Source: a virus
Taxonomy: Duplodnaviria > Heunggongvirae > Uroviricota > Caudoviricetes
DNA length: 47,819 bases
IMG/VR virus record: IMGVR_UViG_2534681833_000010
Reading direction: 5' to 3' (one strand)
The notes beneath the pieces were generated by a model. It did not search any database, was not told where the DNA came from, and worked only from the letters and a program-made list of their open reading frames with translations. This document shows, piece by piece, positions 42,559 to 43,975 of the stretch. Made by a program: the position numbers and the translations under genes. How positions within the stretch are numbered: the first letter of the stretch is position 1; each line of letters begins with the position of its first letter.

Positions 42559-42632
42559 ACAGGTAAGGGCGCTGGTTCGATTAACCAGATGAGCGAGAAG
42601 GGGCCATCTTTTTGGTCAGCGTCCTTACCTGT
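42559..42632 (+). repeat. structured tRNA-like repeat element, copy 1
   Basis: 10-bp perfect outer stem ACAGGTAAGG/CCTTACCTGT enclosing T-arm-like CTGGTTCGATTAACCAG. Confidence 0.5.
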
Positions 42633-42839
42633 TACGTCCTTTTTCATTCGGCGTAACAGCAATTGCTTTTAGCAATTTAGGAATAACGTCTTGCTACGGG
42701 TATATCCCGTCATGCTGAAGGCGCTAATCACGCTGGAAGCCAGGGTTATGCATCCCCTGTTACCGAATTGCAGCCAGGGCGCGGTGCGCCGAAAAGCATA
42801 CGGAGGTGGAAGCCCTCGCCGGAGACGTACCCGGCAAGT

Positions 42840-42915
42840 GATGGTGTAGCTCAGCGGTTAGAGCGGTTGACTGTTAATCAACGGGTCGATGGTTCAAATC
42901 CATCCACCATCGCCA
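42840..42915 (+). tRNA. tRNA-Asn (anticodon GUU)
   Basis: 76-nt cloverleaf; acceptor GATGGTG/CACCATC; anticodon loop CTGTTAA; T-arm GGTTCAAATCC; CCA encoded. Confidence 0.85.
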
Positions 42916-42917
42916 AT

Positions 42918-42993
42918 GCCGGTTTAGCTCAGTTGGTAGAGCGCCTGCCTTGTAAGCAGGATGTCAGCGGTTCGAGTCCGTTAACCGGCACCA
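42918..42993 (+). tRNA. tRNA-Thr (anticodon UGU)
   Basis: 76-nt cloverleaf; acceptor GCCGGTT/AACCGGC; anticodon stem-loop CCTGC-CTTGTAA-GCAGG; T-arm GGTTCGAGTCC; CCA encoded. Confidence 0.85.
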
Positions 42994-43000
42994 ACACAAC

Positions 43001-43075
43001 AGGTAAGGGTATTTTGCGACGTCGGAGATCGCCGTGCTTGGCAGAGGGTTCGAATCCCTACGAAGTACCCTTACC
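43001..43075 (+). repeat. structured tRNA-like repeat element, copy 2
   Basis: Outer stem GGTAAGGGTA/TACCCTTACC; inner T-arm-like GGGTTCGAATCCC; starts 8 nt after tRNA-Thr. Confidence 0.5.
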
Positions 43076-43221
43076 GTTGTGATGAAGTGCAGCTCTTAGA
43101 AGCAACCAGAAGATAAGCATCTGGCTTCACAACATAAACCGCAGGAACGACCAATAAACGGTAGTCCGTATGGAGAACACCCCGTTGAGGAAGAGGCCTG
43201 GCCGGAACCGTAACCGGCACT

Positions 43222-43313
43222 ACAACGTTGAGAACACTGGCGTAACGGGGTCATATCCCAATCTACGAATAAATGTTGCGTTGCAGCGTGACAATCAGTG
43301 TTCTCAACGTTGT
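43222..43313 (+). repeat. structured tRNA-like repeat element, copy 3
   Basis: 18-bp perfect outer stem ACAACGTTGAGAACACTG/CAGTGTTCTCAACGTTGT; inner hairpin CGTAACGGGGTCATATCCCAATCTACG; 3-prime tail GGTGAATGC. Confidence 0.55.
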
Positions 43314-43430
43314 GGTGAATGCACAGGCTGATGTGCCGCAACTACAGTAGTGCGCGCTTTGCGGGGCTTGCTACAACCCTGTGTCGGAGTTCAGCACCGA
43401 CCATCACAATTTATTTAGAAACTGTCACCC

Positions 43431-43844
43431 ATGAGTGCGAGAACGGTAATTATGCAGAAAGAGCAGTTTGTTATTTCTTTAGTGGTTAGCACCAGTTATC
43501 AGGTCGATAAAGTTTCGAAAGAAGATGCATCTGAAATTGATGTTGTAGATGTGTTCGGTAACGAACTCAAAATACCACTTCGTGAATTTAATGAAATAGC
43601 AGCTCCGTTGGGCAAAATTGACGGCTTGGAGGAATACCACAAGCGAATGATTATCGAACGTGCTCAGCTATGCCAGCGCATAAATAAGCTTGTTCGATTC
43701 ATTGGAACAGATAAATTCCTCACTATAGACCAGTGCAAGCAGTTGGATTTGGAAATTCAGCTCGGAAGCATGATTGATTATCGAAAAGCTCTTGATGCTC
43801 GCTTGGTCCAATTAACCAAAAACTATCCGTCAGCAAGCAGCTAA
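43431..43844 (+). CDS. hypothetical protein
   Basis: 137-aa ORF between repeat elements. Confidence 0.3.
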   Translation: MSARTVIMQKEQFVISLVVSTSYQVDKVSKEDASEIDVVDVFGNELKIPLREFNEIAAPLGKIDGLEEYHKRMIIERAQLCQRINKLVRFIGTDKFLTIDQCKQLDLEIQLGSMIDYRKALDARLVQLTKNYPSASS

Positions 43845-43904
43845 TTATAAATTTGGGGCGGATGGTTAGTCCGCCGTTAACTCCATGAAACGGAGTACGC
43901 AACA

Positions 43905-43975
43905 GGTAAGAGCATTCTCCTGTAACGGGTTCATATCCCAATCTACAGGTCCACCAAGAATGCTCTTTCCGTTGC
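43905..43975 (+). repeat. structured tRNA-like repeat element, copy 4
   Basis: Outer stem AAGAGCATTCT/AGAATGCTCTT; inner hairpin CCTGTAACGGGTTCATATCCCAATCTACAGG; 3-prime tail GGTGAATGC. Confidence 0.55.

Follow-up and report, generated by a model that had tools for sequence, protein, structure and literature searches.

Stem-loops in the ban operon leader of a P1-like phage-plasmid belong to a widespread, modular RNA family of enterobacterial phages

Results

The ban operon leader and its stem-loops

We analysed a stretch of 47,819 nucleotides from a virus of the Caudoviricetes (IMG/VR record IMGVR_UViG_2534681833_000010), referred to below as the window, in which four plus-strand stem-loops (elements 1 to 4) are interleaved with tRNA genes. 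The window is a P1-like phage-plasmid. Rfam models matched the C4 RNA with its a1/b1 targets, sok and the IS10 RNA-OUT in it, and positions 42150-44150 are 95% identical to phage P1. According to the P1 annotation, the counterpart of the region that holds the elements is the leader of the ban operon, in which P1ban/P2ban under the C1 operator Op72 are followed by a 'dicF-like region', trnA (Asn), trnT (Thr), plp/upl, tciABC, trnI and ban, with plp and upl annotated as minus-strand coding sequences (CDS). The RNA in which the four elements sit, about 2.9 kb long and mostly untranslated, is produced once C1 repression is lifted. In the window, this leader holds three bipartite RNA cassettes, one hairpin-only relic, three tRNAs and a few small open reading frames (ORFs), arranged head to tail. 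Each cassette combines a hairpin (module 1) with a cloverleaf-like domain (module 2), and the family to which the cassettes belong is a widespread, unannotated, modular RNA of enterobacterial phages.

The four elements had been proposed in an earlier reading made without database searches (the sequence-only reading), and all of them proved to be stable folds at the places proposed. Their predicted folding energies range from -36.7 to -52.6 kcal/mol, with z scores of -4.1 to -6.3 against dinucleotide shuffles, and none of 200 shuffles folded as stably. The inverted-repeat arms lie at 42559-42574/42617-42632, 43002-43014/43063-43075, 43218-43239/43296-43317 and 43905-43918/43957-43970 (16, 13, 22 and 14 nt, respectively). 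Within the window, the conserved 5' end CRYAACAGGTAAG occurs at zero to one mismatch only at these elements, and at the same stringency the 3' tail CCGTTGYGRTGAAKKC, of consensus GTTGYGRTGAA, occurs only behind elements 2-4.

The outer stem had been described as perfect and 10-18 bp long. The pairing is real, but the stems are longer and less regular than this, since an upstream CRYAAC (S1) pairs with the downstream GTTGYG to give 19-22 bp with a bulged A. Element 3 has 22 bp, element 2 has 6 + 15 bp separated by a 1-nt bulge, element 4 has 6 + 2 + 11 bp and element 1 has 16 bp; the U.U mismatch in element 4 corresponds to a U-A pair in element 2. Module 1 can be summarized as a 13-22-bp stem with the conserved base AAC-A-GGUAAG ... 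CUUWCC-GUU, whose tip displays a variable payload of about 40-55 nt. In cassette 2, S1 (CACAAC) and the bulged A are followed by the stem GGTAAGGGTATTT/AAGTACCCTTACC, which encloses a 48-nt payload with the T-arm-like GGGTTCGAATCCC, and by the downstream strand (S2) GTTGTGATG. The cassette 3 hairpin carries a 56-nt payload containing ACGGGGTCATATCCCAATC, whereas cassette 4 has S1 CGCAAC, the bulged A, the mismatched stem GGTAAGAGCATTCT/AGAATGCTCTTTCC and S2 GTTGCGGTG.

A tRNA-like second domain

The sequence-only reading had noted a 3' tail in three copies. This sequence is indeed present only after elements 2-4, but far from being a tail it forms the 5' strand of a further, cloverleaf-like domain. 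Module 2 is closed by a 9-bp helix, GU-rich on one side and CA-rich on the other, in which S2 (GUUGYGRUG) pairs with a downstream strand, S3 (CAYCRCAAC). When folded in isolation, the domains adopt a cloverleaf-like form in which the closing helix is followed by three unpaired nucleotides, a D-like hairpin and the variable arm or arms, with a T-like hairpin stacked on that helix.

The three domains of the window are of different types (Table 1). In cassette 3, S2 (GTTGTGGTG) is followed by the D-like hairpin TGCACAGGCTGATGTGC, variable arms, the T-like hairpin GTCGG-AGTTCAGCA-CCGAC and S3 (CATCACAAT), and the minimum free energy fold is a multibranch structure closed by S2:S3 in which the loops GCUGA and UCAGC are complementary. 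The minimal domain of cassette 2 runs from S2 GTTGTGATG through the T-like hairpin CCAGA-AGATAAGCA-TCTGG to S3 CTTCACAAC, and is the same in P1, D6 and Ro157c2. In cassette 4, S2 GTTGCGGTG and S3 CACCGCAGC flank a domain with the hairpin CCGGG-AGGCA-CCCGG (fold -53.1 kcal/mol, z -3.64). In the window, but not in P1, TTTTTT comes after this S3.

Alignment of the flanks of family members gave a unit consensus. Its 5' half reads GCAC-AAC-A-GGTAAGAGCATTG, a payload of about 45 nt, then CAGTGCTCTTTCC-GTTGTGGTG-AA-TGCGCAGGCTGATGCGC; after TGCGCAGGCTGATGCGC, the 3' half comprises 20-110 variable nucleotides and ends in AAGCCGGAGATCAGCACCGGC-CACCACAAC. In this consensus S2 (GTTGTGGTG) is complementary to S3 (CACCACAAC). 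The two strands covary among copies, as in GUUGUGGUG/CACCACAAC, GUUGCGGUG/CACCGCAAC and GUUGUGAUG/CAUCACAAC; likewise, S2 GTTGCGGTG goes with S3 CACCGCAAC and S2 GTTGTGATG with S3 CATCACAAC. Because S3 had been chosen as the complement of S2, a shuffle control was needed: of 102 distinct units, 60 had an S3 that makes at least 8 of the 9 Watson-Crick pairs and lies directly 3' of a 5-bp hairpin, against 0.05 with shuffled downstream sequence. Complementarity also exists between the D-like loop (GCUGA) and the T-like loop (UCAGC), with a double compensatory variant (GUCGA/UCGAC) at loci L036 and L073, and suggests an elbow-like tertiary contact. A minority domain type (L058, L081 and L113) has a GG-containing D-loop and a UUCGAUU T-loop. 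In several cassettes (L033:3971-4017; L028, L064, L069, L107) the variable arm CTTATCAGCTAGATGGTGAGGTAATGGCTCACCATGGCGACGACGGG matches the small-subunit rRNA model at 38.3 bits (E 3e-7) and has the look of a 16S rRNA helix taken up as cargo.

Two partners compete for S2, since pairing with S1 and pairing with S3 are nearly equal in predicted energy, the mean difference of 1.8 kcal/mol favouring S3. Pairing with S3 is preferred in 27 of 36 cassettes, whereas cassettes 2 and 3 of the window are predicted to prefer S1. The competition may act as a switch, mark an intermediate of co-transcriptional folding or arise as a by-product of tandem arrays.

Table 1. Features of the ban operon leader in the window
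Feature	Position	Strand	Evidence
Pban promoter and C1 operator (Op72-type palindrome), driving the whole leader	42151..42186	+	Near-identical to P1 P1ban/P2ban and Obanab operator
Counterpart of the P1 'dicF-like region'	42285..42369	+	P1 annotation; ends in intrinsic terminator
Element 1, hairpin-only, near-palindromic base	42555..42636	+	16-bp arms; fold -38 kcal/mol, z -4.85; R1 weak
tRNA-Asn(GUU)	42840..42915	+	ARAGORN; Rfam tRNA 74.5 bits
tRNA-Thr(UGU)	42918..42993	+	ARAGORN; Rfam tRNA 74.9 bits; CCA encoded
Cassette 2 hairpin (element 2)	42995..43084	+	R1 48.6 bits, E 6e-10; arms; fold z -4.07
Cassette 2 minimal tRNA-like domain	43076..43133	+	R2 28.7 bits, E 3e-5, match 43076-43139
Cassette 3 hairpin (element 3)	43218..43317	+	Arms 95% complementary; fold -52.6 kcal/mol, z -6.33; R1 41.3 bits, E 3e-8
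Cassette 3 tRNA-like domain, major type	43309..43410	+	R2 69.5 bits, E 1.6e-15, match 43309-43416
137-aa ORF, crAss001_48-related, between cassettes 3 and 4	43431..43844	+	ORF list; Pfam PF21825, 3e-15
Cassette 4 hairpin (element 4), nearest family consensus	43898..43979	+	R1 70.2 bits, E 3e-15; arms; fold z -5.46
Cassette 4 tRNA-like domain, STnc100/PasD-like type	43971..44095	+	STnc100 37.8 bits; R2 28.0 bits, E 4e-5, match 43971-44101
tRNA with CAU anticodon, final leader RNA gene before ban	45199..45274	+	ARAGORN; P1 annotation trnI (tRNA-Ile2)

Covariance models and covariation

Two covariance models were built, one for the hairpin from 30 non-P1 copies (R1) and one for the tRNA-like domain from 19 non-P1 copies (R2). 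The sequence-only reading had proposed a check with Rfam and then with custom models, and here R1, although built from non-P1 copies, recovered elements 4, 2 and 3, in that order of score (Table 1), the best unrelated match in the window reaching 11.8 bits. R2 found the domain directly behind elements 3, 2 and 4, and the same three domains behind elements 2-4 in P1, D6 and Ro157c2. Across 93 loci R1 gave 115 matches, divergent second copies among them. Element 1 was borderline, scoring 23-25 bits with R1 on either strand (its P1 orthologue scored 34.8 bits on the plus strand), and R2 gave no hit behind it; it is a weak, hairpin-only member or relic. The proposal of a single architecture in four copies stands as far as the R1 family goes, with element 1 as a weak member and with units 2-4 extending into a second domain.

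In order to assess the compensatory stem changes claimed for the four copies, we examined the 30 non-P1 copies, in which 98.7% of the cells of the stem are paired. Five pairs, in 24 cells, have changed on both sides, a result reached by none of 500 shuffles, and the claim was borne out. Among 100 distinct model-aligned copies, 15 of 18 stem pairs have changed on both sides, although this alignment was fitted to the model and hence leans towards the structure. Summed over the pairs of these copies, G.U pairs account for about 150 cells, compared with about 30 for non-standard pairs. The R1 scores are 41-70 bits on the plus strand and 21-27 bits on the minus strand. Since the plus strand scores far higher and G.U pairs are abundant, the functional form is taken to be the RNA of the transcribed strand. 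Selection for structure acts on both modules.

Relatives and distribution

We compared the region with its counterparts in P1, D6 and Ro157c2, and found that the hairpin bases are kept while the interiors are not. The interior of element 1 is GGTGTGATT in P1 and the T-loop-like GGTTCGATT in the window. In Ro157c2, the interior of element 2 is wholly unrelated and element 4 is without GGGTTCATATCCC, and element 4 of D6 has a different interior of about 70 nt. Inner T-arm-like hairpins, which the sequence-only reading took to be shared, are thus present in the window but are no family trait; since interiors are swapped or deleted in relatives, these hairpins are optional payloads and not the family signature. 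Whole units are also inserted between elements, namely a tRNA-Tyr with a small ORF in Ro157c2, a tRNA-Ser in D6 and the 137-aa ORF in the window.

Cassettes and tRNA genes can take equivalent positions. In Escherichia coli ST540, a tRNA-Gly occupies the exact slot taken at locus L063 by hairpin and domain, between identical flanks (...ccagatt and atccctctacc...), and the L063 cassette ends in ...CACAACCCA, which resembles a tRNA CCA end. Domain 3 of D6 ends at the base before tRNA-Ser, and S1 of cassette 2 in the window starts 1 nt after the CCA of tRNA-Thr. In phage Bas80, a hairpin, a domain and tRNA-Met form one plus-strand unit among minus-strand tail genes, while the element of Klebsiella phage Magnus lies upstream of tRNA-Met/Arg in a 3.5-kb stretch of tiny CDS calls. 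The cassettes behave as tRNA-gene equivalents in phage RNA arrays and are positionally interchangeable with tRNA genes. The tiny (31-57 aa) or antisense 'hypothetical proteins' called over the cassettes in Magnus (L140, 1900-4450) and Bas80 (L141, 2222-2725) are likely to be annotation artefacts over non-coding RNA.

The sequence-only reading had proposed a search for relatives across P1-like genomes, to which the family is not confined: it is widespread in lambdoid prophages and other enterobacterial phages. Viral contigs were scanned with the pattern AACAGGTAAG-N35-65-CCGTTGYGRTGAA, with exact ends, which matched at least 120 stretches; the matches listed comprise 72 distinct elements, and most are not on P1-like contigs. 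A tRNA search of the fetched surrounding DNA found none around 40 of 44 related loci, and the link to tRNAs is therefore facultative. A frequent context is the leader of the lambdoid late operon, between the Q antiterminator and the holin/lysozyme genes and often right after the PR'-proximal terminator. Immunity regions are another, and at L033 a unit with a plus-strand terminator lies between minus-strand terminase and portal genes.

With a 41-nt junction query spanning the 3' arm, S2 and the D-like hairpin, matches were obtained in 628 of 5,426 complete E. coli genomes, where the annotation among the matches listed is 'none'. The junction also occurs in 90 phage records, from phages of Klebsiella, Escherichia, Salmonella, Enterobacter, Erwinia, Hafnia and Cronobacter that include Stx2 phages and lytic Ackermannviridae, again with no RNA annotation among the matches listed. 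About 12 genera of Enterobacterales carry the family; in species-representative genomes the exact ends were found in Serratia, Rahnella, Rouxiella, Pantoea, Kosakonia, Kluyvera, Citrobacter, Klebsiella, Raoultella, Pluralibacter, Superficieibacter and Escherichia. Conservation of the stem base extends from Serratia and Rahnella to Escherichia and concerns its sequence as well as its pairing. Discrete payload 'alleles' reappear almost unaltered in dissimilar genomic settings, and payload and domain types are recombined in varied combinations. Exact copies also turned up in a Martelella alba assembly (L130, an alphaproteobacterium) and in a Nostocaceae metagenome-assembled genome (L132, a cyanobacterium), which are likely to reflect contamination or mis-binning.

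Relation to known RNAs

None of the elements is a tRNA, in keeping with the statement of the sequence-only reading that none folds into a canonical cloverleaf: ARAGORN called only the Asn, Thr and Met(CAU) tRNAs in the window, and the Rfam tRNA model (RF00005) matched neither the elements nor the domains that follow them, even at E<=10. At gathering thresholds, Rfam returned nothing on the elements in the window and 13 related loci, and in E-value mode it returned only microRNA-like chance matches on the long stems and a sub-threshold match to STnc100 (RF02076). The latter covers 43973-44093, in the domain of cassette 4, and scores 37.8 bits against a gathering score of 47 (E 3.6e-6), with 33 bits at L089; no STnc100 match was found on the hairpins or on domains 2 and 3. 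The view that the elements are not a described family applies, therefore, to the hairpin, whereas the domain after element 4 lies near STnc100. The hairpin module and the major GCUGA/UCAGC domain type are absent from Rfam, while one half of the family, the tRNA-like domain, is distantly related to a known small RNA (sRNA) family.

PasD1 and PasD2, of enteropathogenic E. coli prophages, are reported to be structural relatives of STnc100 (bioRxiv 10.64898/2026.05.13.724894); these RNAs are encoded between Q and the lysis genes. PasD and STnc100 are Hfq-dependent prophage sRNAs from RNA interaction by ligation and sequencing (RIL-seq), located in the same lambdoid slot (PMC8550237; bioRxiv 10.64898/2026.05.13.724894). 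They resemble the cassette 4 domain in their multibranch fold, the (U)GGUG/CACC(A) closing helix, the 'GAAU' after its 5' strand, the first small hairpin and the last hairpin, CCGGGAGGCACCCGG, which abuts the 3' strand; the alignment extends over model positions 31-147 and agrees with the fold. The U/C-rich seed stretch of PasD is similar to the variable arm of cassette 4, and, like the cassettes, these RNAs are encoded in untranslated 'moron' slots of phages near Q, holin and TerB-type genes. They differ in having their own promoter and intrinsic terminator and in the absence of an upstream hairpin. At the pasD2 locus of enteropathogenic E. coli, R1 scored 5.8 bits (no hairpin) and R2 a weak 14.5 bits, and pasD2 continues past the closing-helix domain into a single-stranded seed and terminator, whereas the scan of cassette 4 gave neither a promoter-like site nor a terminator call. 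Characterized relatives of the tRNA-like module thus act as base-pairing sRNAs.

The lambdoid slot is an sRNA-rich moron site, and AgvB, which is encoded there, sponges GcvB through the motif CACAACA (Tree et al., 2014; PMC4104026). AgvB and AsxR share with the cassettes the insertion slot downstream of PR', and AgvB also shares CACAACA (PMC4104026), but they are primary transcripts of 51-60 nt with a conserved terminator, and their Rfam models did not match the elements even at E<=10.

The C4 (P1/P7), CI (P4) and IsrK RNAs (clan CL00128) are, like the elements, phage-encoded with a long outer stem around inner hairpins. These antisense RNAs are cut from a longer transcript by RNase P. P1-like genomes carry RNAs of both kinds. 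In the window, C4 lies at 21103-21188 and the C4 and c4-a1b1 models match only at 20983-21188, with no match of the clan models at the four elements. The cassettes differ from this clan in lacking repeated a/b target sites complementary to their loops, and in their order of hairpin then cloverleaf. Payload antisense sites of at least 13 nt were not found in the window; the best, of 9-12 nt, are at about chance level.

Compared with tRNA, the mascRNA of MALAT1 and viral tRNA-like structures, the domains share a four-way junction, a stacked T-like stem and a predicted D/T contact. Unlike tRNA, they have a 9-bp closing helix, a 9-nt T-like loop and no anticodon arm of fixed size; the major type is without conserved G18G19/TΨC, and CCA is present only sometimes. 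The elements also resemble attC and REP-type palindromes, as repeated imperfect intergenic palindromes with ends …AAC/GTT…, a variable centre and variable gene content, but are strand-specific, G.U-rich and tied to a tRNA-like domain, and are without the attC spacer or the pattern of extrahelical bases. Of the attC core RYYYAAC/GTTRRRY, only AAC/GTT fits (ACACAAC, GTTGTGA). With about two helical turns of mostly regular double-stranded RNA, the stems correspond in form to RNase III-type hairpins such as T7 R1.1 or rRNA stems.

Two further candidates were rejected. The sequence TGCTCTTT in the 3' arm resembles the rrn boxA of antitermination, but it is base-paired and is missing from elements 1-3, and the first terminator already lies upstream of the elements. 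CUGAUG in the D-like loop recalls the hammerhead, but no ribozyme model matched. In the literature, we found no paper on the hairpin, on the GCUGA/UCAGC domain type or on the tRNA-like nature of the cassettes, and nothing relevant for P1 ban/tRNA/dicF.

Other features of the leader

An inverted-repeat search found the palindrome I5 (42151-42182) inside the Pban/C1 operator stretch. The dicF-like region, which gave no Rfam DicF match even at E<=10, is closed by the leader's one strong plus-strand intrinsic terminator (42346-42365, with T8 behind it). All parts of the leader 3' of this terminator, ban included, require read-through. No promoter-like sites were found beyond it in the leader scan, and the one other plus-strand terminator-like site (44354-44370) is weak and lies within an ORF.

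The 137-aa ORF is absent from P1, where the sequence at that place is unrelated. In place of tciA/B/C of P1, the window carries the 137-aa, 78-aa and 275-aa ORFs (43431-43844 and 44127-45171); the 78-aa ORF is also annotated as a CDS in Ro157c2, and the 275-aa product is an SPFH/Band 7 protein. The cargo between the RNA cassettes is exchangeable. The last tRNA of the leader was called Met(CAU) by ARAGORN, while its P1 orthologue is annotated trnI (tRNA-Ile2, read after lysidine modification). P1 plp/upl (2308-2877 of the P1 locus L001, corresponding to about 42964-43530 of the window) run antisense over the 3' end of tRNA-Thr and cassettes 2 and 3. The plp frame is broken in the window, where the longest minus-strand ORFs are 49 and 81 aa; plp and upl of P1 are probably not genes.

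Within 45554-46641, the DnaB-like ban has a stop after 307 aa, which cuts DnaB_C at profile position 117 of 255. Directly 3' of the shortened gene lies IS10 (RNA-OUT 46519-46588; transposase ORF from 46581), by which ban appears to be interrupted. Ahead of tRNA-Asn, a leader module ACGGGTATATCCCGT-ATGCTGAAGG... (42640-42839) is common to L005 and L086, and a GCTCCACGAAACGGAGC hairpin just 5' of S1 (about 43860-43897) occurs in many contexts, L010, L015, L017, L033 and L107 among them. From these sequence comparisons, the ban leader looks like a patchwork of reusable RNA modules that recur in unrelated phages.

Discussion

We propose that the elements are the 5' stem-loop modules of bipartite non-coding RNA cassettes that are co-transcribed and cut out by tRNA-processing enzymes, and we put the probability of this explanation at roughly 0.55; the enzymes and a function in trans are what we infer here. 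Since the cassettes lie in the C1-repressed leader between Pban and ban, they would be co-transcribed upon derepression of the prophage. The tRNA-maturation machinery would then cut the polycistronic RNA at each tRNA and each tRNA-like domain, with RNase P acting at the 5' side of S2 and 3' trimming proceeding to the end of S3. Such cutting would 'punctuate' the leader, so that tRNAs, tRNA-like small RNAs and mRNAs from the inserted ORFs are released; each hairpin would remain either at the 3' end of the fragment upstream, as a protective structure, or as a separate small RNA. An imitation of the tRNA elbow would come from the complementary D-like and T-like loops (GCUGA/UCAGC). The specific cargo (seed or decoy sequences) would lie in the variable tips of the hairpins and in the variable arms; the relatives STnc100 and PasD are Hfq-bound regulatory sRNAs.

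Several observations weigh against this explanation. PasD2 has its own promoter and starts at the closing helix, without an upstream hairpin, and the hairpin is therefore not required for an sRNA of this kind. The domains are without canonical D- and T-loop sequences and were called neither by ARAGORN nor by the Rfam tRNA model. Their closing helix and T-like stem stack to 14 bp, compared with 12 bp in tRNA, so that recognition by RNase P is an assumption, and CCA follows S3 in only about one-third of cassettes and in none of the three in the window. Pairing of S1 with S2, the predicted favoured form in cassettes 2 and 3 of the window, would block the tRNA-like fold. The published P1vir RNA-seq studies consulted do not resolve these sites. 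Finally, the sampling pattern fixed the conserved ends, whose conservation is partly by construction, a concern that is lessened by the model searches and by the BLAST search with the junction.

The strongest rival, though on balance an unlikely one, is partly compatible with the processing of cassettes by tRNA enzymes. It holds that the elements are purely RNA punctuation or stability devices, in which RNase III (or RNase E) sites or barriers to 3' exonucleases separate tRNAs and mRNAs and the tips are filler. Stems of 19-22 bp with the S1:S2 extension have the size of an RNase III substrate, the elements are placed between functional units, and the payloads, which are replaced or partly deleted in relatives, have no antisense target of at least 13 nt in the window. 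However, the near-unchanged recurrence of payload alleles in different contexts is not random, the sequence of the stem base is conserved from Serratia/Rahnella to Escherichia, and a simple barrier has no need of coupling to a tRNA-like domain. Considerably less probable is a role as DNA-level recombination sites, either attC-like or 'boundary sequences' for module exchange, with the pairing reflecting folded single-stranded DNA or inverted repeats. The ends ...AAC and GTT... and the variable, imperfectly palindromic centre of 70-100 nt are those expected of attC, payload and domain types are mixed in different combinations, and mosaic junctions do fall in or next to elements: the tRNA-Tyr block ends in the 3' arm of element 2, the 5' edge of element 3 is precisely the site of an ORF insertion, and D6 diverges immediately behind GTTGTGGTG. 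Homologous recombination at any conserved sequence would account for these junctions, however, and the strong strand asymmetry, the many G.U pairs, the single bulged A in place of attC extrahelical bases, the missing central spacer and the mismatch to the purine/pyrimidine pattern of the core all argue against attC. The attC reading was dropped once the replacement boundaries in P1, D6 and Ro157c2 had been compared, as the limits of the replacement by the 137-aa ORF are not at GTT but lie about 20 nt past domain 3 (about 110 nt past element 3) and about 35 nt short of element 4.

A further proposal, that the cassettes belong to the GcvB/Hfq network, strikes us as improbable. Here S1 (CACAACA) and S3 (CAYCACAAC) would mimic GcvB targets in the manner of AgvB, S2 would mimic the R1 seed of GcvB, and the pairing would set which strand is exposed. 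CAACACAACA at 42992-43001 is a 10-nt perfect complement of the GcvB R1 region, and S3 strands contain 8-nt complements at 43128-43135 and 43402-43409; AgvB acts through CACAACA in the same lambdoid slot (PMC4104026), and the two pairings of S2 are nearly isoenergetic. But seeds of 7-10 nt are short, a GU-rich/CA-rich helix yields such motifs anyway, the strands are mostly paired in either fold and the Rfam models of AgvB/AsxR found no match at E<=10, so that the motif link may serve as a lead only. In cassette 2, S2 (GUUGUGAUG) is identical to a portion of the R1 seed of GcvB. That the elements are decayed tRNA genes, either pseudogenes or remnants of integration sites with no present function, is very improbable in our view. 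Such an origin might explain the location in tRNA clusters, the T-arm-like GGGTTCGAATCCC and GGTTCGATT in some payloads and the canonical-looking D/T loops AAUGGC and UUCGAUU in the L058, L081 and L113 domains, yet compensatory evolution and conservation across genera indicate selection, 40 of the 44 loci have no tRNA in the surrounding DNA that was fetched, the tRNA model found no match at E<=10 and the T-arm-like payloads are dispensable.

A wider version of the proposal that cassettes are released by tRNA-processing enzymes is more tentative. The cassettes may represent an order-wide phage class of 'tRNA-mimic cassettes', in which a hairpin scaffold with a swappable payload of about 45 nt is joined to an elbow-mimicking domain that recruits host tRNA-processing enzymes, the modules moving among phages, replacing or joining tRNA genes and delivering programmable small RNAs. 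If this is true, the small RNAs could sponge up host sRNAs, GcvB for example, or act as decoys for tRNA-directed enzymes or defences, and the competing S1:S2 and S2:S3 pairings could be a folding switch.

The family structure is well supported, and the function is putative. Roughly one in nine complete E. coli genomes, and many phages of Klebsiella, Salmonella, Enterobacter and Erwinia, carry a conserved module that has been invisible to annotation, for which R1 and R2 are ready-made tools; the scaffold-plus-payload design could also serve small-RNA expression. The family links the long-puzzling untranslated ban leader of P1 and the tRNA regions found in large lytic phages with the lambdoid moron slot downstream of PR', which houses Shiga-toxin genes, tRNAs and virulence-associated sRNAs (PasD, STnc100 and AgvB). 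If the tRNA-like domain directs processing, it would provide phages with a route to release many small RNAs from one regulated transcript, and would give a reason why such RNAs travel with tRNA genes.

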